Assembly: GCA_937912125.1 (NCBI GenBank)
Contig: CALDOK010000195.1
Coordinates: 17,384-81,383, forward strand
Reading direction: 5' to 3'
From: an uncultured Pseudomonadota bacterium
GTDB lineage: Bacteria > Myxococcota_A > UBA796 > JAFGLY01
Length of the DNA: 64,000 nt
Shown one piece after another: positions 5,446 through 15,647 of this stretch (the stretch's first letter is position 1; the number at the start of each line of letters is the position of its first letter). Made by a program: the position numbers and the translations under genes. The notes under the pieces were generated by a model that was given only the letters and a program-made list of their open reading frames with translations, had not been told where the DNA came from and did no database searches.

Positions 5446-6885
5446 GTGGACCGTAACCGATGCGTGGTGGGCAGCCAGGGGCAAGCACGCGCATGGTGCC
5501 CTGGGCTACCCAGCCCATGCTATCCTCTCTCATTGCACTCGGAGCGCCCCGTGCCCAGCATTCCCAGCATCGTGACTGGCACCATCCTCAGCGTCCAGGT
5601 GGCCTCCGGCCCCTCCTGGCTGCCTCGCACCGAGGTCACTCTGCGAACGGACCAGGGCGAGCTGGTGGAGTTCCTGCTCCCAGGCGCCAATGGCGGCCCT
5701 CCCGCGGCGGTGCTGGGCATACCCACGCTGCAGCCCGGGCAGCGCTGGAGCATCGAGCTGGACCTGGCCACCGTGGGGCTGGTGCCCCGAGGCCACGGCG
5801 CAGGGATGCGCTCGCTGGACCCACAGCCCATCTGGAACCTCAACGGCAACCACCTGCCCGATGAGCTCCTGCCCTGGCCCTACCTCATGAACGACCAGGG
5901 CATCGCCAGCGTGGGCGCCGACGCCACCGAGGCCAGCTTCGAGGCCGCCCTGCAGCAGTGGTCCAGCGTAGGCTGCTCCACATTCGCCTTCGCCTACCAA
6001 GGCCGCACCGACGCCCTGGTCGAAGACGACGGGCTCAACGTGATCGCCTGGGAGAACGACAGCTGGGAGTGGCATGCCGACGCCGCCGCCATGAGCGTGG
6101 TGCGCTTCGACATGAGCAGCGGTGAGCCCACCATCCGCGAGACCGACATCCTGTTCAACGGCGTGAACTGGGACTGGGACGCCACCACTGGCACCACCGC
6201 GGCCACCCCCCCAGTGCTCCACGTCGGCTCGGTGCTGGCCCACGAGCTGGGCCACTCCACCGGCATGGACCACGAGTACGAGCAGGTCACCTCCAGCATG
6301 TACCTGGCCTACTTCGGGGGCAGCTGGATGGAGACCCTGTCAGGCGACGACATGCGCGGCCTGTGTGAAAACTACCCCAGCGGCGCCGACTCCTGCGCCC
6401 AGGATCTGGACTGCCAGGGCCTGGACGCCAGCGAGCGCTGGTGCCACGAGCTCGATGGGGTCAAGGTCTGCGACGAGGTTCGTGACCCGGTGGGCGCCGA
6501 GTGCTTCATCGACGACATCAACTGCGAAGAGGTCTGCCTCTTCACCAGCGCCTTCTACTCCCAAGGCAGCTGCGTGGTCGCCTGCCCCGACGGCAACTGC
6601 GAGCCCGGCTTCGTCTGCCAGGACGCCGACTACACCCTGCCCCTGCAGCCCGGCCCGGTCTGCGTGCCCGTCCCCCCCGACACCGGCCTGGACAGCGGCG
6701 ACACCGCGCTGGATACCGGAGCGCCGGCCCCTGACGACACCGGCGACGACGAGCCCGAAGGCTGCGGCTGCGTCGCCTCTGCGACCGCCCCAGCGCTCCT
6801 CCCCTTGCTCTCGCTGCTGGCGCTGACCTCCTGGCGGCGTCGCCGCCCAGCTCTCTCTTCCGTCCACACCCGGAGATCACCATGA
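5446..6885 (+). CDS. Metzincin (matrixin-like) zinc metalloprotease with a Cys-rich C-domain and a MYXO-CTERM sorting tail
   Basis: HExxHxxGxxH = HELGHSTGMDH, followed by the Met-turn SSMY. Cys-rich region CAQDLDCQG...CDEV...CEEVC. Tail GCGCVASATAPALLPLLSLLALTSWRRRR. The start is uncertain (GTG 5446 or GTG 5572). No in-frame start gives a recognisable signal peptide. Confidence 0.8.
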   Translation: MDRNRCVVGSQGQARAWCPGLPSPCYPLSLHSERPVPSIPSIVTGTILSVQVASGPSWLPRTEVTLRTDQGELVEFLLPGANGGPPAAVLGIPTLQPGQRWSIELDLATVGLVPRGHGAGMRSLDPQPIWNLNGNHLPDELLPWPYLMNDQGIASVGADATEASFEAALQQWSSVGCSTFAFAYQGRTDALVEDDGLNVIAWENDSWEWHADAAAMSVVRFDMSSGEPTIRETDILFNGVNWDWDATTGTTAATPPVLHVGSVLAHELGHSTGMDHEYEQVTSSMYLAYFGGSWMETLSGDDMRGLCENYPSGADSCAQDLDCQGLDASERWCHELDGVKVCDEVRDPVGAECFIDDINCEEVCLFTSAFYSQGSCVVACPDGNCEPGFVCQDADYTLPLQPGPVCVPVPPDTGLDSGDTALDTGAPAPDDTGDDEPEGCGCVASATAPALLPLLSLLALTSWRRRRPALSSVHTRRSP

Positions 6886-7979
6886 AAGCCACCCTCGCCG
6901 CGGTCACCCTGCTGCTCCTGCCTGGCAGCGCGCTGGCCGGCTACAAGCTGCTCCAGAACGACGACTTCGTCAGCGGCTCCCACGCCGCCTTCCAGGGGGG
7001 CTTCGTGGCGGGTGAGTGCTGGGGTTCGATCTACACCCCGGCTCCGGGGGACTACCCCTTCGACATGGTGTTCGTCGACGCCCTGATCGGCGGCACAACC
7101 GCCAGCGCCCTGTACAACATCGACATCTACGCCGTGGGCGGCACCAACCTGAACCAGGCGGACTACGTGGACGGGTCGTACCTGTACATCACCGGCTCGA
7201 ACAGCGCCTTCAACCGCGTCGACCTCACCGACCCCAAGCTGGAGGTCACCCTCCCGGCCGTCGAGTCCGGCAACGTCGCGGTGGCCTTCTGCCTGGACGA
7301 CTTCTCGGGCTACCCCGCCATCGCCCGGGACGTCGGGGGCATGGACCACGCCAACCGCAACTACATCTATCTGCCCGACCATAGCTCCTGGTGGCAGTCC
7401 AACCTGTTCGGGATCACCGGAGACTGGATCCAGCGGCTCTGCATCGAGACCGACAGCGTCAGCGCCGACGAGTGCGACGTGGACGCCGACTCGGACGCCG
7501 ACTCGGACACCGACGCCGACGCAGATGCCGACGCCGACGCCGACGCCGACAGCGACGCCGACGCCGACACCGCCTGGGACTCCACCGCGCCCATGGACGA
7601 CCTGTCCCTGATCAGCATCACCCCCGCCGAGATGAGCCTGGGCGAGGCCGTGGACGTGGTGTTGCTGGGGTCGGGCTTCGACGGCGGCATGGACGCCCGC
7701 ATCGGTGGCATCTCGCTGACCGGCATCGACGTGCTCAACGGCGAGACCCTCAAGGGCCGCACCCCCAGCTCCCTGCCCCAGGGCGTCCACGACGTCGAGG
7801 TGGTGCTGGACGGCGACAACGCCTACCTGCCCTCGGCCTTCACGGTGCTGGGCGAGGAGGAGATCGACGACGGCTGCGCCGGCTGCAGCAGCGGCGGCCA
7901 CCCCAGGGGGGCCGGCTGGCTCGGCTTCGGCCTGCTGGGCATGATGGCGCTGGGCTGGCGACGACGCGAACAGCGTTAG
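6882..7979 (+). CDS. Secreted protein with D-A/D-S linker, IPT/TIG-like domain and MYXO-CTERM tail
   Basis: Signal peptide MKATLAAVTLLLLPGSALA. Linker DVDADSDADSDTDADADADADADSDADAD. IPT-like segment ISITPAEMSLGEAVDVVLLGSGF...VHDVEVV. Tail DDGCAGCSSGG...GLLGMMALGWRRR. The ATG overlaps the upstream stop (ATGA at 6882-6885). Confidence 0.8.
   Translation: MKATLAAVTLLLLPGSALAGYKLLQNDDFVSGSHAAFQGGFVAGECWGSIYTPAPGDYPFDMVFVDALIGGTTASALYNIDIYAVGGTNLNQADYVDGSYLYITGSNSAFNRVDLTDPKLEVTLPAVESGNVAVAFCLDDFSGYPAIARDVGGMDHANRNYIYLPDHSSWWQSNLFGITGDWIQRLCIETDSVSADECDVDADSDADSDTDADADADADADADSDADADTAWDSTAPMDDLSLISITPAEMSLGEAVDVVLLGSGFDGGMDARIGGISLTGIDVLNGETLKGRTPSSLPQGVHDVEVVLDGDNAYLPSAFTVLGEEEIDDGCAGCSSGGHPRGAGWLGFGLLGMMALGWRRREQR
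7476..7568 (+). repeat. Imperfect (GAC-GCC/TCG/ACC)n hexanucleotide microsatellite encoding the D-A/D-S/D-T linker
   Basis: Read directly: gacgtggacgccgactcggacgccgactcggacaccgacgccgacgcagatgccgacgccgacgccgacgccgacagcgacgccgacgccgac. Confidence 0.9.
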
Positions 7980-8027: not shown

Positions 8028-8798
8028 ATGCTCCTCGCCACCCACAACGTGAACTCCCTGCGCGCTCGCCTGGATCGGGTCCTGGCCTGGCTCGAGCGGG
8101 TCCAGCCCGACGTGGCCTGCCTGCAGGAGACCAAGGTCACCGACGACCTCTTCCCCCGCGAGCCCCTGGAGGCCCTGGGCTACCACGTCGCCATTCACGG
8201 TCAGAAGACCTACAACGGCGTGGCCATCCTCTCCAAGTCCCCCCTCGAGGATGTGGTGGCCGGCATCGACGGCTTCGACGACCCCGAGGCTCGCAGCCTG
8301 GCCGCCACCACGGCCGGTCTGCGGGTGCGCTGCCTGTACGTGCCCAACGGCAAGGAGATCCCGTCGGACAAGTACGAGTACAAGAAGGCCTGGCTCGACG
8401 CCCTGATGGCGGAGACCCGAGACCGCTGGGACCCCACGCTGCCCGTGGTGCTCACCGGCGACTTCAACATCACCTTCGACGACCGCGACCTGTGGGACCC
8501 CGAAGGCCACCGCGAGGCAGTGTTCCACTCCGCACCCGAGCGCCAGCGGCTGCAGGCCCTGGTCGAGTGGGGCCTGACCGACGCCTTCCGCCTGCACAAC
8601 CAGGAGGCCGGCATCTACACCTGGTGGGACTACCGCCAGGCCTGCTTCCGCCGCGGCATGGGCCTGCGCATCGATCACTTCCTCGTCTCGGCGCCCCTGA
8701 TCCCGCGCTGCCGCTCAGTGACGGTGGATCGCCAGGAGCGCAAGGGCGAGAAGCCCTCTGACCACGCCCCTGTGCTCATGGAGCTTGACGATGCCTGA
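8028..8798 (+). CDS. xthA: Exodeoxyribonuclease III (AP endonuclease)
   Basis: MLLATHNVNSLRARL...DVACLQETK...YNGVAILSK...VLTGDFNI...YTWWDYR...GMGLRIDHFLVS...PSDHAPV. These are the full-length Xth/EEP family motifs. Confidence 0.93.
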   Translation: MLLATHNVNSLRARLDRVLAWLERVQPDVACLQETKVTDDLFPREPLEALGYHVAIHGQKTYNGVAILSKSPLEDVVAGIDGFDDPEARSLAATTAGLRVRCLYVPNGKEIPSDKYEYKKAWLDALMAETRDRWDPTLPVVLTGDFNITFDDRDLWDPEGHREAVFHSAPERQRLQALVEWGLTDAFRLHNQEAGIYTWWDYRQACFRRGMGLRIDHFLVSAPLIPRCRSVTVDRQERKGEKPSDHAPVLMELDDA

Positions 8799-10107
8799 GG
8801 CCGGCGGCGGCTTCCTCATCGCCGATCCCTTCGCCGCCGCCGTGGACGGCATGGGGGATCACCTGGACACCCACCTGCATGTGCGGGTGGACGTGCCCGG
8901 CCGGCTCGACCAGGCTCGGCTCCAGCGAGCCTTGGCGGCGCTGGCGCGGTCCGTCCCCGCGCTGGGTGGGCGCTTCGAGCGGCGCTGGTGGCGCTCCCGC
9001 TGGGCGCTCGATCCTTCTCCCACCTGGCGCATCGACGAGGCGCAGGCGGTCTCGGCCCAGGCCGCCGAGCAGCGCGAGGCCGAACTGTACGCCGAGCCCT
9101 TCGAGCCGCGCGGGAAGCTGCCCGTGCGCCTGGTGCTGCTGCACCTGCCCGACCACGATCGCCTGCTGCTGCGGGTCAGCCACCTGCTGGCCGATGGCGG
9201 CGGGACCAAGAACCTGTGCTATCGCCTGGCTCAATGCTACCGCGGGGTGGGCGAAGATCCGGACTGGTCCCCGGACCTGGCTCCCCACCCCCACCCGCTC
9301 CGCCGGCTGCTGGCTAGCCTCGAGCTCCGCCACCTGCCCGCGATGCTCCTGGGAGCGCTGTCCGAGCTGTTCGACAACCGCCCCATGCGCCCCATGCGCG
9401 TGCCCATGGGCCCACAGGGCCCCGGGACTCCCCGGTACCGGGCCCTGCACCTGCCACCCTCCAGGGTGGCCCGGCTGCGGGCTCGCTGGCGCAGCCAGGG
9501 GGTGACCCTGAACGATCTGGCGGTGGCGGCCTTCACCCGCGCCGTGGTGCTCAGCTTCCCTCGAGCCAACGCCCAGCGCAGCCACGCCGCCCTGGTGGCC
9601 ACCGCCGACCTGCGGCAGTACCAGCCTCCCCTGCGGGATGTGTGCAACTACAGCGCCCTGCGGCCCCTGGTGTTCGGGCGCCTGCCCTTGCCGGCGGCCG
9701 AGGACAACCTGGCGCGGGTGACGAAGGTCACCAAGCCCTGGAAGGCCGGCCGGACCGGCATCCTGCTGGGCATCCCAGTGATCGCGCTGGCCAGCGTCCT
9801 GCCCCACGCCGCGCTGCGAGCCGTGCTGCACCTCATCCTGGGCCGGCTGTTGACCCCCGCGGGCGCCTGCACCGGGCTGACGAACATCGGCCCCATGGAA
9901 GCTGAGGCCCTGGACTTCGGAGACGGCCCCTGCCTCGCCGCACGGGTCATCAGCCCGCTGGCCCCCTCGCCCACCATGATCACCGCGCTCACAGGCTGCG
10001 CGGGGGCACTGGACTTCACCGTGGCCTATCGGGAGCCCACGCTGGACGGGGCGGACGCGCAGCGGCTGATCGACGCCATGGACCGAGAGCTGGCTGCCCT
10101 CGAGTAG
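8791..10107 (+). CDS. Stand-alone condensation-domain-like (HxxxDG) acyltransferase
   Basis: The SHLLADGGG motif sits in the position of the HHxxxDG active site of NRPS C-domain/WS-DGAT-like enzymes. ~439 aa with no carrier or adenylation domain. ATG 8791 lies 8 nt inside the xthA 3' end. Confidence 0.6.
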   Translation: MPEAGGGFLIADPFAAAVDGMGDHLDTHLHVRVDVPGRLDQARLQRALAALARSVPALGGRFERRWWRSRWALDPSPTWRIDEAQAVSAQAAEQREAELYAEPFEPRGKLPVRLVLLHLPDHDRLLLRVSHLLADGGGTKNLCYRLAQCYRGVGEDPDWSPDLAPHPHPLRRLLASLELRHLPAMLLGALSELFDNRPMRPMRVPMGPQGPGTPRYRALHLPPSRVARLRARWRSQGVTLNDLAVAAFTRAVVLSFPRANAQRSHAALVATADLRQYQPPLRDVCNYSALRPLVFGRLPLPAAEDNLARVTKVTKPWKAGRTGILLGIPVIALASVLPHAALRAVLHLILGRLLTPAGACTGLTNIGPMEAEALDFGDGPCLAARVISPLAPSPTMITALTGCAGALDFTVAYREPTLDGADAQRLIDAMDRELAALE

Positions 10108-10170
10108 CCGCTCTTCCCCGCGCGGCTGCGGCACAGTCAACCCCGAACGAAGGTCGCGGGTCGATTGGCA

Positions 10171-10192
10171 CGGTGAGCGGGTATACTCACCG
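10171..10192 (+). promoter_or_regulatory. Perfect 7-bp inverted repeat (CGGTGAG-n8-CTCACCG) in the leader of the small-lipoprotein/rSAM cassette
   Basis: Read directly: cggtgag cgggtata ctcaccg, ~20 nt upstream of the GAGAGGAG ribosome-binding site for ATG 10215. It could be an operator or an RNA hairpin. Confidence 0.35.
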
Positions 10193-10214
10193 GGCACAGA
10201 GAGAGGAGAACCTC

Positions 10215-10424
10215 ATGGACCGCTTCTGGCGCTCGGTTTCTATCGTCATGGGCGCGCTGCTCGCGGCGGGCTGCCCCGTCACCACCAAGTACGGCATCGA
10301 CACCGGTGGCGACTCGGGGGACACCGAGCAGTTCAGCACCGCGGCCGCTCCCGTGGACCTCGAGGCCGCGCCGCTGCCCACCAGCGCCGTGCAGGCGCCC
10401 ATGGCCGAGCTCGTCTCCGAGTAG
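10215..10424 (+). CDS. Small (69 aa) predicted lipoprotein/peptide
   Basis: ATG 10215 is preceded by GAGAGGAG. MDRFWRSVSIVMGALLAAGC (lipobox-like), then a 50-aa acidic, unstructured-looking tail. The TAG stop lies 3 nt before the rSAM GTG start. Confidence 0.55.
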   Translation: MDRFWRSVSIVMGALLAAGCPVTTKYGIDTGGDSGDTEQFSTAAAPVDLEAAPLPTSAVQAPMAELVSE

Positions 10425-10427
10425 CGG

Positions 10428-11510
10428 GTGGGGTTTCGTGCCCGCGCCCGGCGGCGCCTGCTGCCGCTGTATCACCACGCCGTCCGGCGATCGCCGGATC
10501 TGCGCTACCTGTTCTTCGAGATCACCCAGCGCTGCAACCTGGCATGCCAGCACTGCGGCAGCGACTGCACCGCCAGCGCCCAGCACCCAGACCTGCCCGC
10601 AGAGGCCGCGCTCCGCGCCGCCCGCGAGCTGGCCCAGGCCATGGACCCAGCCCGCATCACCGGCGTGATCACCGGGGGCGAGCCCCTGTGTCACCCCGAC
10701 GTCTTCGAGCTGGGAGCCGGGCTGGCCGAGCTGGGGTTCCCCTGGGGCATGGTCAGCAACGGCTGGCTGTGGAGCGCGGAGACCCTGCAGCGCTCCAGCC
10801 AAGCCCACATGACCAGCGTGTGCATCAGCCTGGATGGCCTCGAGGCCAGCCACGACGCCCTGCGGGGCCGAGCGGGCAGCTTCGAGCGGGCGCTGAACGC
10901 CATCGATCTACTGCGGGGCCCGGGCGGCCCGCCGGTGATGGACGTCGTCACCTGTGTACATCCGGGCAACCTGGCCGAGCTCTGGGATGTGCACGACCTG
11001 CTCGTGGCCCATGGCGTGCCCGCCTGGCGGATCTTCACCATCGATCCCATCGGGCGCGGCGCCGCTCCCGCCCTGCAGCTGGACACCCCAGGCTTCCAGC
11101 GCCTGCTCTCCACGGTGGCGGCGCTCAAGCAGGCCAGCCCCATGAAGCTCAACTTCGGCTGCGGCGGCCACCTGGGCTACGCCACCAACCGGGCCGTGCG
11201 CGACGCCGACTACGTCTGCCTGGCGGGCGTGAAGGTGGCGGGCGTGATGGTCAACGGAGACATCCTGGCCTGCCCCAACAACGACCGCAGCCTGGCCCAG
11301 GGCAACATCGCCCGCGACTCCCTGGTCCAGGTCTGGCGGCACGGCTTCGAGCCGTTCCGGGACCGCCGCCTGACCCGCAGCGCCGCCTGCCACGGCTGCC
11401 CCGAGTGGGGTCTGTGCAAGGGCAACGACATGCACCTGTGGGACCCCCAGCGAGGCGAGACTCGCCTCTGCCACTTCCACCAGTACGAGCTCGACAGCTT
11501 CGAGCCCTGA
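10428..11510 (+). CDS. Radical SAM enzyme with C-terminal SPASM domain
   Basis: CxxxCxxC = CNLACQHC within FFEITQRCNLACQHCG; GGEPL; SPASM-type cysteines CLAGVKVAGVMVNGDILACPN ... CHGCPEWGLCKGNDMH ... LCHFH. Confidence 0.88.
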   Translation: MGFRARARRRLLPLYHHAVRRSPDLRYLFFEITQRCNLACQHCGSDCTASAQHPDLPAEAALRAARELAQAMDPARITGVITGGEPLCHPDVFELGAGLAELGFPWGMVSNGWLWSAETLQRSSQAHMTSVCISLDGLEASHDALRGRAGSFERALNAIDLLRGPGGPPVMDVVTCVHPGNLAELWDVHDLLVAHGVPAWRIFTIDPIGRGAAPALQLDTPGFQRLLSTVAALKQASPMKLNFGCGGHLGYATNRAVRDADYVCLAGVKVAGVMVNGDILACPNNDRSLAQGNIARDSLVQVWRHGFEPFRDRRLTRSAACHGCPEWGLCKGNDMHLWDPQRGETRLCHFHQYELDSFEP

Positions 11511-11547
11511 TCTCCCGCTATACTGCAGCGCTGTCGGAGGCCTCGCC

Positions 11548-12381
11548 ATGCGCGCATCGACCGTCATCTCGCTCGCCATGCTCCTGTCCCCTGCCCTGGG
11601 CTGCTCCGAGTGGACCGTGGGCAAACAAGATGACCCACCAGTGCACCAGCACACGGGCCTCGACTCCGACCCGCCCGAGGCCGACGCCGACGCCGACGCC
11701 GATGCGGACAGCGACGCCGACTCCGACAGCGACGCCGACGCGGACCCCCAGGCGGGCTGCGCTGACGGCCAGCGCGAAGGCTTCGAAGACTGGAGCGCCT
11801 ACCCCTCCATCGCCGCCTGCTCAGGCGCCTGGGAGCAGCCCGGCGTCACCCGAGCCGACCTGGCCCCGTCCTGCAGCCGCGGCGCGGGCGACGACTCGGG
11901 CAACACCGAGGGCTTCGGCTGCAGCGCCGCGGATCTGTGCGCCAGCGGCTGGCATGTGTGCGTTGGCAAGGCCGACGTCTCCGGCAAGGCGGGCAGCTGC
12001 GACGCGGCGGTGCCCCATGGCACACCCGACAAGGCGCTGTTCTTCGCGGTGGCGCAGCACAGCGACAGCGACTCGGTGTGCGACGACGGCTCGAGCAACG
12101 GCAACGACGTGTTCGGCTGCGGAAACTTGGGCACGCAGCTGAGCGGCGACCGGGACTGCGGTCCCCTCACCCGGGTGCTGGCCAGCATGAACCCCGGCAC
12201 CTGCGGCTACAACGAGGCCGAGCACCCCCATGGCCCCTGGGCCTGCGCAGGCGGCGACGACAGCCACTACCACGAGGGCGAGCTGGTCACCAAGGTCGCC
12301 TGCCCCGGCACCTCCTGCAGCTACGACGGCAACCCTGTGGGCAACTCCGACAAGGGTGGCGTGCTGTGCTGTAGGGATTAG
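11548..12381 (+). CDS. Cys-rich secreted lipoprotein (16 Cys in the mature domain)
   Basis: A GGAGG RBS precedes the start. MRASTVISLAMLLSPALGC, an acidic DADADADADSDADSDSDADAD linker, then CADGQREGF...AACSGAWEQPG...GFGCSAADLCASGWHVC...VLCCRD. Confidence 0.75.
   Translation: MRASTVISLAMLLSPALGCSEWTVGKQDDPPVHQHTGLDSDPPEADADADADADSDADSDSDADADPQAGCADGQREGFEDWSAYPSIAACSGAWEQPGVTRADLAPSCSRGAGDDSGNTEGFGCSAADLCASGWHVCVGKADVSGKAGSCDAAVPHGTPDKALFFAVAQHSDSDSVCDDGSSNGNDVFGCGNLGTQLSGDRDCGPLTRVLASMNPGTCGYNEAEHPHGPWACAGGDDSHYHEGELVTKVACPGTSCSYDGNPVGNSDKGGVLCCRD
11680..11745 (+). repeat. (GCC-GAC)n-type microsatellite encoding a D-A/D-S linker
   Basis: gccgacgccgacgccgacgccgatgcggacagcgacgccgactccgacagcgacgccgacgcggac. 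Confidence 0.9.
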
Positions 12382-12438
12382 GCAGGTTTCGACCCACACG
12401 CGGCCCACACACCTCGGCCCTCTCCCAGGAAGCGCACC

Positions 12439-13608
12439 ATGAACCTCGCCTTGCTCTCCTTCACCAGCGCCGCGCTGGCGCTGGGCCTGACGGCCTGCTT
12501 CGACAACGACACCAGCACCGACCAGGCCGCGGCGCCGCCGGTGGCCACCCCCATCGCCCCGGCCGTGGGCTCGGTGATGAACGCGCCACCCATGGGTCGC
12601 GAGAACGCGGCTCCCCCGGGCGGTGGTGGACGTGGCGGCCGCGGCGGCGAGCAGCTGAGCGCCGCCGATGTGGACTTCCGGGTCACCAACCCCGTCACGG
12701 GGGTCTCACTGGCCGTCTACGCCGAGCTCCCTAACACTCCCCCCCCCTACAAGGCGGTGGTGGTGGTGCCCGGCGCCATCAAGGACGCCAGCGGCGTGTT
12801 CAACCGACCCGAGATGCGGCAGCCCATCCTCGACAACGGCGTGGCCATCTTCCGCTTCGATCCCGACGGGCGCGGTCAGAGCGGCGGCGAGGAGGACATG
12901 GGCGGCAAGAAGCAGCAGGCCGGCCTGCGGGCGGTCATCGAGCAGATCATCGCGCGCGACGACATCGCCGACGACCAGGTGGGCGTCTTCTCCAACTCGG
13001 TGGGCATCCAGATGGCCGCGGGCGCCCTGGCGGGCGGCCAGACCAAGGCTCGCTTCCTCATCGACTGGGAGGGCCCCTCCTCGAAGGCCTACGCGGCCGG
13101 TTGCGTGAGCGACAGCGACCTGCCGGGCCCACCCTGGCCTCCCGGCCTGGAGTGCGGCGACGACGTCTACTGGGCCGAGCGCGAGGCCGAGCGCAACATG
13201 GCGAAGCTCACCATCCCCTACCAGCGCATTCAGCGCGCTCAGGACCACGTCCATGGCACCGACGCTGGCCACGCCTTCGCCCTGTACCAGGCCGCCCTCG
13301 AGGGCCCCTGCCCCTGGGTGCGCATGAACACCCTCGAGCCCAACCTGGCCGCTGACAAGGTGCAGAGCGCGCCGCGGCCGGACGTGGGCTTCCCCACGCT
13401 GTACGCCTGGTACGGTGACTACGTCGCCGACATGTTCATCGCGATCGACGGCGGCACGCTCCCCGTCCGGGACCACGTCATGTCCGACGGCATGGGCGGC
13501 CCGCCCCAGGGTGGCGCCCGCGGCCAGGGCGGCGGCCAGGGCGGCGGGCAGGGCGGCGGTCGTGGCGGCGGCAAGGGCGGCAAGCGCGGCCCACCCCAGA
13601 AGCGCTAG
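12439..13608 (+). CDS. Lipoprotein, probable alpha/beta-hydrolase fold, with Gly/Arg-rich N-proximal patch and C-terminal tail
   Basis: Lipobox LGLTAC. Nucleophile-elbow-like GVFSNSVG. GGGGRGGRGG near the N-terminus and GGPPQGGARGQGGGQGGGQGGGRGGGKGGKRG at the C-terminus. The fold assignment is tentative. Confidence 0.5.
   Translation: MNLALLSFTSAALALGLTACFDNDTSTDQAAAPPVATPIAPAVGSVMNAPPMGRENAAPPGGGGRGGRGGEQLSAADVDFRVTNPVTGVSLAVYAELPNTPPPYKAVVVVPGAIKDASGVFNRPEMRQPILDNGVAIFRFDPDGRGQSGGEEDMGGKKQQAGLRAVIEQIIARDDIADDQVGVFSNSVGIQMAAGALAGGQTKARFLIDWEGPSSKAYAAGCVSDSDLPGPPWPPGLECGDDVYWAEREAERNMAKLTIPYQRIQRAQDHVHGTDAGHAFALYQAALEGPCPWVRMNTLEPNLAADKVQSAPRPDVGFPTLYAWYGDYVADMFIAIDGGTLPVRDHVMSDGMGGPPQGGARGQGGGQGGGQGGGRGGGKGGKRGPPQKR
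13495..13590 (+). repeat. GGC-rich low-complexity DNA encoding the (G3Q/G3R/G3K) tail
   Basis: ggcggcccgccccagggtggcgcccgcggccagggcggcggccagggcggcgggcagggcggcggtcgtggcggcggcaagggcggcaagcgcggc. Confidence 0.85.
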
Positions 13609-15647
13609 ATCTCGAAGCTCTCCAAGGACCACGCCCCCACACCCTGGTCCACCAAGACGTAGAGCTGCTGCTCGACCGCGGTGCGCAGCACCCGGGGGCT
13701 GCCCGTCTGGACGCAGCTGGGTGCCAGGTCCAGGCTGGCTGCGCACAGCCGGCTCTCGTCCGCTGGGACGTCCACCACCACCCACACCGCCCGCTCGCCG
13801 AGCCACACCGGCGCAAGGTGGGGGTCCGGCGGGAACGGCAGGTCCACCATCGCGGCCCGGCTCCAGCTGCGTCCCTGATCGTCGCTGGACGCCAGCACCC
13901 CGTGTCCTCCCGCGTCGCTGTGGGCCACCGCGGCCAGGTGCAGCGTCCCCGCCTCGTCCACCCGCAGGGCGGGCAGCTCCATGCGCCAGCTCCCCGTCAC
14001 GCCCAGCAGGTCCCCGAGCCCGGAGGCCGCCAGGCTCTGCCAGCGGGGCTGGGCACCCCCGAGGGCCACGCTGCCGACCCAGATGTCCCGGGCATGCTGG
14101 CTGCCGCTGCCCAGGGGGCCCGCTCCCACCGCGGTGATCAGCAGGTCTCCCTCGAGCGCCGCGGCCATGTCCAGGGGGTAGCTCAGATCCGCAGCCATCC
14201 AGCCCGAGGACCAGCTCCCGTCGAACTGTGACACCACCAGGTGCAGATCACCCTCGGTGCCAACCGCGCCGCCATCGGCGGTGCCCGCGCGGTTGTCCAC
14301 CCAGGCTGCCACCACCGTCCCAGCTCCTCCAGCGCGCAGCACCGGGCGCCACAGTGGCCCCACCTGCTCCACCGGGGCCGCGATGGCTTCCCAGCTCGCG
14401 CCGCTGTCGACGCTCTGGGCGCAGCGCGCCACCCAGGTTGTTGAGTCCTCGTACGGAGCCAGGGCCAGCTCCCGAAAGCACACCCAAGCCAGCTCGCCGT
14501 CGCGAGCCATGGCTGGAGCCTCCACCAGGAGCGCCTCGGCGCTGGACAGGCGCGTCCCGCCGACCCACAGGGCGCTGCGGTGCCAAGGATCGTCCTGGTA
14601 GCGCAGCTCCGCCACCAGGCCTCCGGCCAGCGCCAGGTCCGCCAGGCCGCTGCGGCTGGCCGCGACACTGGGCCGAGTCAGCAGGCCACGCTGCACCAGG
14701 CCATCGGCCCAGGGCAGATCCACCCCCAGGATCCCGGCGGCGGTGGGGGCCACGTCGGTGATCAAGAACGGATCGTCCAGATCGACCCCCGCCACCACCT
14801 CGGGACCCAGGGCGAGCGCCGGGATCCGGCGGCAGCCGTTGCAGCTGTCGCCGTGGTGACGCCAGTGGGGATCATCGTCCGAGAGCGAGTGACGCCCGTG
14901 ATCCGCCACGATCATCAGCGTGGTGTCGCCCTGGTAGTGGTGGTGCCCCTCGAGCCAATCCCACAGCTCCGCGATGGGAGCGTCGATGCTGCGCAGGTCG
15001 TCGAGGTAGTCGTCGTCGTCGCCGTAGTGGCCCGAGCGGTCGAGCTGGTGCATGTTGACCAGCGCCAGGCGAGTGGGGAACTCGTCCAGCCGCTCCTGCA
15101 GCCGGGCCAGGACCCGGCGGTCGTCCGGGGAAGGAGACCCGTCTTCGTCCCCCACCCACACCCAGCCCGCCCCCAGAGCCCCAGGCCAGAGGGAGCGCTC
15201 CACGGGACGCACCAAGCCGGTGTTGGCCACCAGCACCACCTGCTCCTCACCGTCGCCCAGCTGCTCCCGGACCGCCTCGAAGAGCGATGGCAGCTGCGGC
15301 CGGTACAGCCCGACCTCGTCGTCGGCCGAGACCGTGGCCAGGGGCTGGCGTCGGCCGCTGATCAGAGCGGCGTGAGCCGGCGTGGTGGTGGTGGCGCCGA
15401 GGTTCCAGGCCTGGCTGGCCCTGGCGCCCTGGGGGAGCAGGCGGGACCAGGTCACCGGCATCAGCTCGGCGGGCGGCTCCCCCGTGGCGCTCGAGGGCTC
15501 GTCCCCGAGTGAGTCCTGGAGGCGCACGCCGTCCATGACCAGGATGATGACGGTGCCGTCGACGCCGTCGGCCCGCTGACAGCCGACCGCCGCGAGCAGG
15601 GCGAGCAGGAGCCGTGGGGCGGGTGGGCGTGGGATCATCGGGGGCAC
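13605..15647 (-). CDS. Lipoprotein: alkaline-phosphatase-superfamily (NPP-type phosphodiesterase-like) domain fused to a BNR/sialidase-like beta-propeller
   Basis: LLLALLAAVGC. NPP-like motifs ILVMDGVR, ATTTTPAHAALISGR (Thr nucleophile position), LDRSGHYG, MIVADHGRH. BNR Asp-box-like SVDSGASW and SSDDQGRSW. The start is GTG 15647 or ATG 15638. Its stop overlaps the stop of the convergent gene (CTAG, 13605-13608). Confidence 0.7.
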   Translation of the reverse strand: MPPMIPRPPAPRLLLALLAAVGCQRADGVDGTVIILVMDGVRLQDSLGDEPSSATGEPPAELMPVTWSRLLPQGARASQAWNLGATTTTPAHAALISGRRQPLATVSADDEVGLYRPQLPSLFEAVREQLGDGEEQVVLVANTGLVRPVERSLWPGALGAGWVWVGDEDGSPSPDDRRVLARLQERLDEFPTRLALVNMHQLDRSGHYGDDDDYLDDLRSIDAPIAELWDWLEGHHHYQGDTTLMIVADHGRHSLSDDDPHWRHHGDSCNGCRRIPALALGPEVVAGVDLDDPFLITDVAPTAAGILGVDLPWADGLVQRGLLTRPSVAASRSGLADLALAGGLVAELRYQDDPWHRSALWVGGTRLSSAEALLVEAPAMARDGELAWVCFRELALAPYEDSTTWVARCAQSVDSGASWEAIAAPVEQVGPLWRPVLRAGGAGTVVAAWVDNRAGTADGGAVGTEGDLHLVVSQFDGSWSSGWMAADLSYPLDMAAALEGDLLITAVGAGPLGSGSQHARDIWVGSVALGGAQPRWQSLAASGLGDLLGVTGSWRMELPALRVDEAGTLHLAAVAHSDAGGHGVLASSDDQGRSWSRAAMVDLPFPPDPHLAPVWLGERAVWVVVDVPADESRLCAASLDLAPSCVQTGSPRVLRTAVEQQLYVLVDQGVGAWSLESFEI

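Follow-up and report, generated by a model that had tools for sequence, protein, structure and literature searches.

Which protein is the substrate of a radical S-adenosylmethionine (rSAM) enzyme that is encoded between two genes for apparent lipoproteins? The question is raised by a locus in a 64,000-nucleotide (64-kb) stretch of DNA from an uncultured Pseudomonadota bacterium (GTDB lineage Myxococcota_A; assembly GCA_937912125.1, contig CALDOK010000195.1, positions 17,384 to 81,383), which we refer to throughout as the window. The initial annotation had treated three of its genes, encoding a small lipoprotein-like peptide, an rSAM enzyme with a SPASM domain and a lipoprotein with 16 cysteines, as a single cassette that no known family fits. 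The NCBIfam models TIGR04133 and TIGR04134 nevertheless define exactly such a pairing of an rSAM enzyme with a lipoprotein. We favor, with moderate confidence, the reading that the small open reading frame (ORF) and the rSAM gene form a two-gene module, a divergent branch of the TIGR04133/TIGR04134 system, whose enzyme acts at a Tyr-Gly (YG) motif. We consider it likely that the two genes encode an enzyme and its substrate, with YG as the place of action.

The small ORF lies on the forward strand, running from an ATG at 10215 to a TAG at 10424, and encodes a presumed substrate of 69 amino acids (aa). The good ribosome-binding site, the lipobox and the acidic tail first reported for it are all present. 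A Shine-Dalgarno-like AGGAG is read at 10204-10208, 6 nt upstream of the ATG, and the N-terminus (MDRFWRSVSIVMGALLAAGC) matches a PROSITE-type lipoprotein pattern that marks a predicted signal peptide and LLAAGC lipobox (MDRFWRSVSIVMGALLAAG-C20) at 10215-10274, with the Cys20 codon at 10272-10274. The start had originally been put at 10171, close to an in-frame GTG at 10173; we favor the ATG at 10215 because the relatives begin at the Met of MDRFWR in the clade alignment. Cys20 is followed by 49 residues, among them eight Asp or Glu and a single Lys. The proposed modification site, Lys25-Tyr26-Gly27 (10287-10295), stands five residues after the lipobox Cys, and the protein is laid out as signal peptide, lipobox, KYG motif and acidic tail (…LLAAGC-PVTT-KYG-IDTGGD…). 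The rSAM gene starts at a GTG (10428) 3 nt past the stop of the small ORF, as had been described; the two genes share a reading frame, with one TAG between them. Four relatives (L081, L083, L084 and L001) keep the small ORF, with a gap of 1-6 nt to the rSAM start.

Within the window clade, M1, K25, Y26, G27 and a few residues of the tail are invariant in the alignment of the small proteins, and the N-terminal 27 residues are conserved at the protein level across relatives whose rSAM enzymes are only 63-76% identical. In this clade the signal-peptide region is 76% identical, the enzyme 66% and the tail 35%; for short forms of the partner overall, the signal-peptide regions (74-76% identical) match the enzymes (66-80%) in conservation, and the tails are 28-35% identical. 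When all six frames of the window were scanned, this was the sole ORF with a lipobox followed by YG within 25 residues, and the window contained neither a second rSAM copy nor a long-form partner. Searches of NCBIfam and Pfam gave no family match for the small protein, and TIGR04134 produced no match at E ≤ 1. By its layout, the small ORF represents the rSAM-associated lipoprotein in minimal form: it lacks the beta-sandwich domain of the TIGR04134 long forms and ends in a 42-residue acidic tail of low conservation.

The enzyme (360 aa; 10428-11510, + strand) has the radical SAM cluster motif CxxxCxxC at C36, C40 and C43 (CNLACQHC, residues 36-43; 10533-10556), in columns that are invariant in 66 homologs, and a SPASM auxiliary-cluster region at 11217-11471 with cysteines C264, C282, C321, C324, C330 and C348 that are invariant or nearly so. 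Pfam assigned Radical_SAM at 69.6 bits and SPASM at 27.7 bits (residues 264-325). The best NCBIfam family, by about 200 bits, was TIGR04133 ('rSAM_w_lipo'; 319.3 bits, E 2.7e-95), to which residues 13-351 align end to end (positions 11-347 of 350). The next matches were heme b synthase AhbD (115.8 bits), the nif11-class maturase family TIGR04103 (103.3 bits), NirJ2 (102 bits) and NirJ (89.1 bits). Among relatives, TIGR04133 scores reached 452-582 bits in Bacteroidales and Treponema, 362-392 bits in other myxobacterial lineages (Polyangia, Polyangiaceae and Myxococcales), Krumholzibacteria and one unclassified bacterium, and 319-340 bits in the window clade, where the relatives of the window enzyme scored 332-340. 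Because the scores grade across lineages in this way, they place the window enzyme on the most divergent sampled branch of the TIGR04133 family. In a search of the protein collection with the rSAM sequence, a few closely related proteins (57-81% identity) formed a clade of their own, followed at about 40-50% by hundreds of others, many of which carry the Joint Genome Institute (JGI) label 'radical SAM enzyme (rSAM/lipoprotein system)'; sources naming the close relatives give only "radical SAM protein with 4Fe4S-binding SPASM domain".

An AlphaFold2 model of the enzyme had a predicted local distance difference test score (pLDDT) of 94.4 and a predicted template-modeling score of 0.92. Its nearest solved folds were SkfB, SuiB, ChlB, the anaerobic sulfatase-maturating enzyme (anSME) and PqqE; SkfB and SuiB were best by E-value, and anSME gave the highest full-length template-modeling (TM) score (0.70/0.70) at about 15% sequence identity. 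BlsE and DesII were also among the structural neighbors. As modeled, the enzyme resembles peptide- and protein-modifying SPASM/twitch enzymes. It has no N-terminal recognition element (RRE) domain of the kind associated with peptides that are made on ribosomes and modified after translation (RiPPs), since the radical SAM motif already begins at residue 36, and it is taken to be cytoplasmic because it has no signal peptide. A strongly basic N-terminal helix (GFRARARRRLLPLYHHAVRR; residues 3-21, window 10434-10490) precedes the radical SAM core. This helix, modeled with high confidence and with the family consensus RxRRxLLPxYQxxxRRxH, might touch either the membrane or the substrate, in the latter case at its acidic or signal-peptide part.

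Relatives of the pair were compared at 80 fetched genomic loci with rSAM identities of 37-80%, to which five from close relatives were added. Two rSAM peptide patterns had seeded 597 matches, and the best of these make up the 80 loci; they sample Bacteroidales, Marinilabiliales, Treponema, Polyangia/Myxococcota, Krumholzibacteria and others, with Bacteroidales metagenome-assembled genomes dominating, and their stored flanks reach at most 4 kb to either side of the rSAM gene. Locus counts take related genomes as separate observations, and the loci are not phylogenetically independent. A lipoprotein gene on the same strand lies directly upstream of the rSAM gene in almost every locus. When a signal peptide and a lipobox were both required in the ORF just upstream, 65 of 84 scorable loci passed; of the 19 that failed this strict test, most reveal the same layout when inspected by hand or under relaxed criteria, or their partner falls in the clustered family. 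We estimate that a lipoprotein accompanies the rSAM gene in about 84 of 86 loci. Clustering of neighboring ORFs of at least 90 aa across the 86 loci identified the lipoprotein as the only gene conserved with the rSAM gene across phyla, and the other accessory genes recovered, an ABC ATPase and a permease, occurred in a single Bacteroidales subgroup only. The RiPP-like logic that had been read into a small ORF beside an rSAM/SPASM gene is thus upheld: the pair is conserved and translationally coupled, and the small protein is very probably the substrate. Its lipoprotein signal, also recognized at the outset, proves to be a defining feature of the system.

The second shared feature of the partners is the YG motif. 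YG occurs in the mature part of all 65 strict partners, within 20 residues of the lipobox Cys in 60 of them and directly after it (…QAC-YG-TP…) in 29, and the consensus is [C/E/K]-Y-G-[T/V/I/A]-P. The background rate of YG in a stretch of that length at the same loci is 0.106 (nominal binomial P 2e-52, the loci not being independent). This YG criterion was derived here from the 65 partners and is not a curated criterion of TIGR04134.

Outside these elements the partners vary widely, from 45 to about 200 aa. Long forms have a beta-sandwich domain with sub-threshold CarboxypepD_reg matches and are recognized by TIGR04134 ('lipo_with_rSAM', 'radical SAM-associated putative lipoprotein'; 95.4 bits for L054 and 57.7 for L004, against a cutoff of 39.8). 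Bona fide TIGR04133/TIGR04134 pairs occur in the cultured strains Draconibacterium sediminis (L040), Labilibaculum manganireducens (L053) and Maribellus maritimus (L079). Short forms are reduced to signal peptide, lipobox, YG motif and acidic tail; partners of about 60-70 aa also stand beside true TIGR04133 enzymes, such as that of L013 (469.7 bits). On a neighbor-joining tree of the rSAM enzymes, the partners group coherently by class (CYG directly after the Cys, KYG short forms and EYG long forms), a pattern that would be expected of an enzyme and its substrate. The spacing from Cys to Tyr ranges from 0 to about 60 residues. XYG is repeated two to six times in some partners, which have just the lipobox Cys as the one cysteine near the motif; examples are a 159-aa partner of L002 with six repeats and a partner of L034 with three.

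At several loci, two or three tandem partner genes, each with its own YG motif, lie upstream of one rSAM gene (L014:2787-3971, L049:3162-3983, L076:3111-3948 and L077:2884-3975); at L074, two such ORFs end 529 and 18 nt upstream of the rSAM start. Together, the tandem partners and the XYG repeats suggest use of multiple substrates or multiple sites. Two loci bear unexpected taxonomic labels: L001, the closest relative in the genome collection (80% identity), and L005 are labeled 'uncultured Enterobacterales', whereas the other relatives found are Bacteroidota, Myxococcota, Treponema and similar, and the GC content of the window is 69.8%. The labels of these two short contigs probably reflect misbinning or mislabeling.

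How closely does the window pair conform to the two NCBIfam models, both of which are classed as hypothetical equivalogs? Besides the end-to-end alignment of the enzyme, it shares with them a lipoprotein gene directly upstream of the rSAM gene and a YG soon after the lipobox Cys. It differs in the score of the enzyme, whose clade is the most divergent sampled, in a partner without the CarboxypepD_reg-like beta-sandwich of about 100 aa that forms the bulk of the TIGR04134 model, and in a motif that reads K-Y-G-I-D rather than E-Y-G-T-P or C-Y-G-x-P. Because both curated cutoffs were failed and the partner is without the main TIGR04134 domain, we have not filed the pair as a member; it is best described as a variant outside TIGR04133/TIGR04134 membership.

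Several observations weigh against the proposed module and must be set beside this evidence. The enzyme scores 319.3 bits where TIGR04133 requires 425, and the small ORF likewise falls short of TIGR04134. The full SPASM domain that had been claimed stands as far as the Pfam profile is concerned (positions 1-67 of 67), but only six of the seven canonical cysteines are kept, the fourth Cys of CX2CX5CX3C being missing. The window motif continues with Ile-Asp in place of the usual x-Pro. Lipidation and export of the small protein are predictions. In the accessible literature we found no paper that mentions TIGR04133 or TIGR04134, and no biochemistry.

We propose the following sequence of events. 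The 69-aa prolipoprotein would be made in the cytoplasm, where the rSAM enzyme would modify the Tyr of Lys25-Tyr26-Gly27 before export; recognition probably depends on the signal-peptide region, conserved in the short forms, which would thus play the part of a 'leader'. Sec would then export the modified precursor, Lgt would lipidate it on Cys20, signal peptidase II would cleave it, and the general sorting machinery would take over. The expected product is a membrane-anchored acidic lipopeptide of about 50 residues with a modified residue close to its lipid anchor. The initial annotation had remarked that neither a protease nor an exporter accompanies the genes; their absence is no puzzle if these tasks fall to Sec, Lgt and signal peptidase II, because no dedicated protease or exporter is then needed. 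The pair would in this respect resemble a RiPP system in which the cell's lipoprotein machinery stands in for leader, protease and exporter. A precedent for the order of events exists, in that anSME acts on sulfatases that are later exported by Sec.

What reaction might take place at the Tyr? The XYG repeats that accompany a single lipobox Cys, together with the variable Cys-Tyr spacing, argue for a local modification at each XYG and not for a Cys-Tyr crosslink. To our knowledge, tyramine excision by spliceases is the only characterized rSAM/SPASM reaction that is defined by X-Tyr-Gly. Spliceases, which belong to the rSAM/SPASM enzymes, remove tyramine at XYG (PMC11414181, PMC11626197, PMC9811515). 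Like the window pair, the known systems (PlpX/PlpY, PcpX, RhaX/RasX and RcsX) place an rSAM/SPASM gene beside a precursor with one or more X-Tyr-Gly motifs, the motif by which they are defined (PMC11414181, PMC9811515). The known splice site AAMYGVV and the engineered tag PGYGLPI, with their cores MYGVV and GYGLPI, resemble the YG-[aliphatic]-P of the partners, and binary spliceases are without a separate RRE protein, a leader helix having been proposed to bind the enzyme (PMC11414181).

The window pair differs from these systems in that its precursor has a Sec/lipoprotein signal and not a Nif11/NHLP-type leader, in that it has no Y protein, and in that its enzyme is not of the PlpX family. 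It is the substrate motif, and not the enzyme, that points to splicing, because TIGR04103, with 103.3 bits where 725 are required, is no nearer to the enzyme than AhbD (115.8 bits) or NirJ2 (102 bits), which counts against a splicease. The PlpX family corresponds to IPR026482 (PMC11002830). Our comparison with TIGR04103 takes that entry to be equivalent to IPR026482. Scott et al. (2022; Chem 8:2659-2677), as summarized in PMC10849128, mined 189 genera for YG-rich ORFs next to rSAM/SPASM genes; the 27 splicease-substrate pairs that they reportedly validated may include a TIGR04133-type family, in which case the window pair would be a new member of a characterized kind. By analogy of motif, we give splicease-like excision of tyramine at X-Y-G about a third of the weight, and other Tyr-centered radical chemistry, such as cyclophane formation, crosslinking or epimerization, a similar weight. 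Were splicing to operate, a RiPP-style modification would be built into the general lipoprotein pathway, with the Sec/lipoprotein signal peptide doubling as the rSAM leader and a lipid-anchored alpha-ketoamide displayed at the surface or in the periplasm, and the 69-aa precursor of the window would represent a minimal natural substrate. We put this forward tentatively. Alpha-ketoamides are electrophilic and are known as warheads of protease inhibitors.

The same module and substrate with a different reaction at Tyr-Gly is a realistic, if somewhat unlikely, alternative to our overall proposal. It covers a three-residue cyclophane (Tyr ring to the C-beta of residue +2, as in triceptides), a C-C, C-O or C-S crosslink, epimerization, and cleavage of the Tyr side chain. 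The enzyme is equally distant from all characterized SPASM families, and its nearest solved folds, SkfB, SuiB, ChlB, anSME and PqqE, catalyze several peptide chemistries; the missing canonical SPASM Cys and the conserved Y-G-x-P, which would also suit a strained Tyr-x-x macrocycle, point the same way. A strict Gly after Tyr, on the other hand, characterizes splicease sites (XYG; PMC9811515), the residue at +2 is far from constant (T, V, I, A, M, S or P), and a Cys-Tyr link is made unlikely by a spacing of 0 to about 60 residues and by the several YG sites that share a single lipobox Cys.

The proposed enzyme-substrate module has also to be weighed against a role in cofactor or small-molecule metabolism, in which the enzyme would act on a tetrapyrrole (AhbD, NirJ) or a sugar (BlsE, DesII) and the lipoprotein would be a binding or delivery partner and not a substrate. 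This we consider improbable. AhbD, NirJ2 and NirJ are indeed among its next-best NCBIfam matches (89-116 bits) and share with it an rSAM-plus-SPASM layout without an RRE domain, and BlsE and DesII are among its structural neighbors. Yet the scores amount to roughly a fifth of what the families require, 500-515 bits for AhbD and NirJ, and no heme or other cofactor pathway genes are conserved around the rSAM gene in the 86 loci; with no tetrapyrrole genes nearby, score and neighborhood alike led us to reject a specific AhbD/NirJ role. The only conserved neighbor is instead a lipoprotein of 45 to about 200 aa whose universal elements are just the lipobox and a short YG motif, and its motif classes track the enzyme tree.

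More doubtful still is the proposal from which the work began, a three-gene cassette in which the 16-Cys lipoprotein, prior to its export, would receive thioether or other crosslinks from the enzyme, in the manner of QhpD and QhpC. The third gene itself is as described: a putative lipoprotein of 277 aa (11548-12381, + strand) that begins 37 nt downstream of the rSAM gene and has, beyond the lipobox Cys19, 16 cysteines, all of them invariant in 52 homologs. It lies on the same strand with no terminator-like site between, a promoter and terminator scan of 9900-12700 having found none of either, and it remains in the wider neighborhood of close relatives. In L081, L083 and L084, however, whose rSAM enzymes are 76, 70 and 63% identical to that of the window, a 16-Cys gene 79-85% identical to the window copy lies 3.3 kb from the rSAM gene, and four opposite-strand genes intervene (FUR, a 173-aa protein, ApbE and an outer-membrane protein of about 430 aa; L081:6059-9204, L083:6080-9202 and L084:6084-9158). 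Because this four-gene block is absent from the whole 64-kb window, gene order indicates that an insertion or deletion has occurred at the rSAM/16-Cys junction (11510 versus 11548) and that the 37-nt spacing is a lineage-specific juxtaposition.

The distribution of the 16-Cys protein agrees with its gene order. No homolog lies in the stored rSAM flanks of the other 80 loci, and two homologs at 56-62% identity stand in unrelated contexts with no rSAM gene within 8 kb. The proposed trio is therefore reduced to the small lipoprotein and the rSAM gene. The 16-Cys domain (residues 70-277, about 208 aa; 11755-12381) is shared by at least 241 homologs (50-85% identity), in which it stands alone or is joined to PKD-type domains and whose source labels are Myxococcaceae or Deltaproteobacteria. 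It matched no Pfam or NCBIfam family and no Protein Data Bank (PDB) sequence; like the small ORF, it is without a family, whereas the rSAM enzyme does find one, TIGR04133, as best match below its cutoff. An AlphaFold model of the protein has a pLDDT above 93 for residues 70-277, and a fold search against the PDB gave no match (best E 2.2). Because its 16 invariant cysteines lie in an exported, compact domain, they most plausibly form eight disulfides after export. Similarity to QhpD/QhpC ends with an rSAM/SPASM enzyme that acts on a protein exported afterwards: here the Cys-rich gene is not conserved with the rSAM gene, the locus has no dehydrogenase subunits, dedicated exporter or protease, and the partner that is conserved has no Cys beyond that of its lipobox. 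On the grounds of synteny and distribution we reject both the three-gene cassette and QhpD-like maturation of the 16-Cys protein, which by the same comparison is an unrelated neighbor and not part of the conserved rSAM/lipoprotein module.

That the small ORF is a spurious frame and the rSAM gene an orphan is hardly credible: although GC content is 69.8% across the window, long chance ORFs occur in every frame and the small ORF has no database family, its N-terminal 27 residues are conserved as protein, it has a good ribosome-binding site, its stop-start coupling to the rSAM gene is conserved, its architecture equals that of partner genes in other phyla, and no other ORF in the window combines a lipobox with YG.

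One further family was considered for the enzyme. It shares with anSMEs (AtsB, ChuR and anSMEcpe) an rSAM-plus-SPASM architecture without an RRE domain, in addition to the structural match noted above, but neither the small ORF nor the 16-Cys protein has the C/S-x-P/A-x-R sulfatase motif. A 680-aa lipoprotein of the alkaline-phosphatase superfamily is encoded nearby on the opposite strand (13605-15647), and its homologs match Pfam Phosphodiest and, weakly, Sulfatase. Its active-site stretch, TTPAHAALISGR, contains T-T-P-A-H, a sulfatase-like signature with Thr for Cys/Ser and His for Arg; by eye it looks like a phosphodiesterase-type Thr nucleophile and not a formylglycine site, and for this reason there is no call to invoke an anSME. 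The gene is not conserved with the rSAM gene in other lineages, and an anSME for a nearby sulfatase was rejected.

Upstream of the pair, the relatives L081, L083 and L084 retain the order M10-like protein, 360-aa protein, Exo_endo_phos protein, 438-aa condensation-like protein, small lipoprotein and rSAM enzyme; the condensation/PapA5-like gene and the Exo_endo_phos gene precede the pair in the window clade only. In the window, the former encodes a 440-aa protein (8785-10107, + strand) with weak matches to Condensation and PapA5-type acyltransferases and an HLLADG (HxxxDG) motif. Its gene shares 14 nt with the Exo_endo_phos gene upstream (8028-8798), and 107 nt separate its end from the small lipoprotein gene. 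Further upstream, a 365-aa secreted protein (6882-7979, + strand) contains a long Asp/Ala/Ser repeat (DADSDADSDTDADADADAD…) and an IPT/TIG domain (22.4 bits), and ends in CAGCSSGG, a hydrophobic stretch and a RRREQR tail, an arrangement that we take to resemble a MYXO-CTERM sorting signal. A DADADADSD linker in the 16-Cys protein is similar to this Asp/Ala/Ser repeat.

The pairing of an rSAM enzyme with a lipoprotein has so far been known in silico, as two "hypothetical equivalog" models, and for annotation it matters that the window genes fall below both of their curated cutoffs. A lipobox with Tyr-Gly after it is the one element common to the partners in Bacteroidales, Treponema, Myxococcota and other lineages; the partner's motif class diversifies together with the enzyme, and minimal partners of 45-75 aa exist, that of the window included. 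Bacteroidales of the gut and rumen, and also Treponema, commonly have the rSAM/lipoprotein system. If tyramine splicing is the reaction, formation of beta-amino acids and ketoamides would extend from secreted RiPPs to the membrane-anchored lipoproteins of abundant gut and rumen bacteria; if another chemistry applies, it would probably be a new rSAM reaction on proteins. Either chemistry would explain why such systems need no dedicated protease or exporter.

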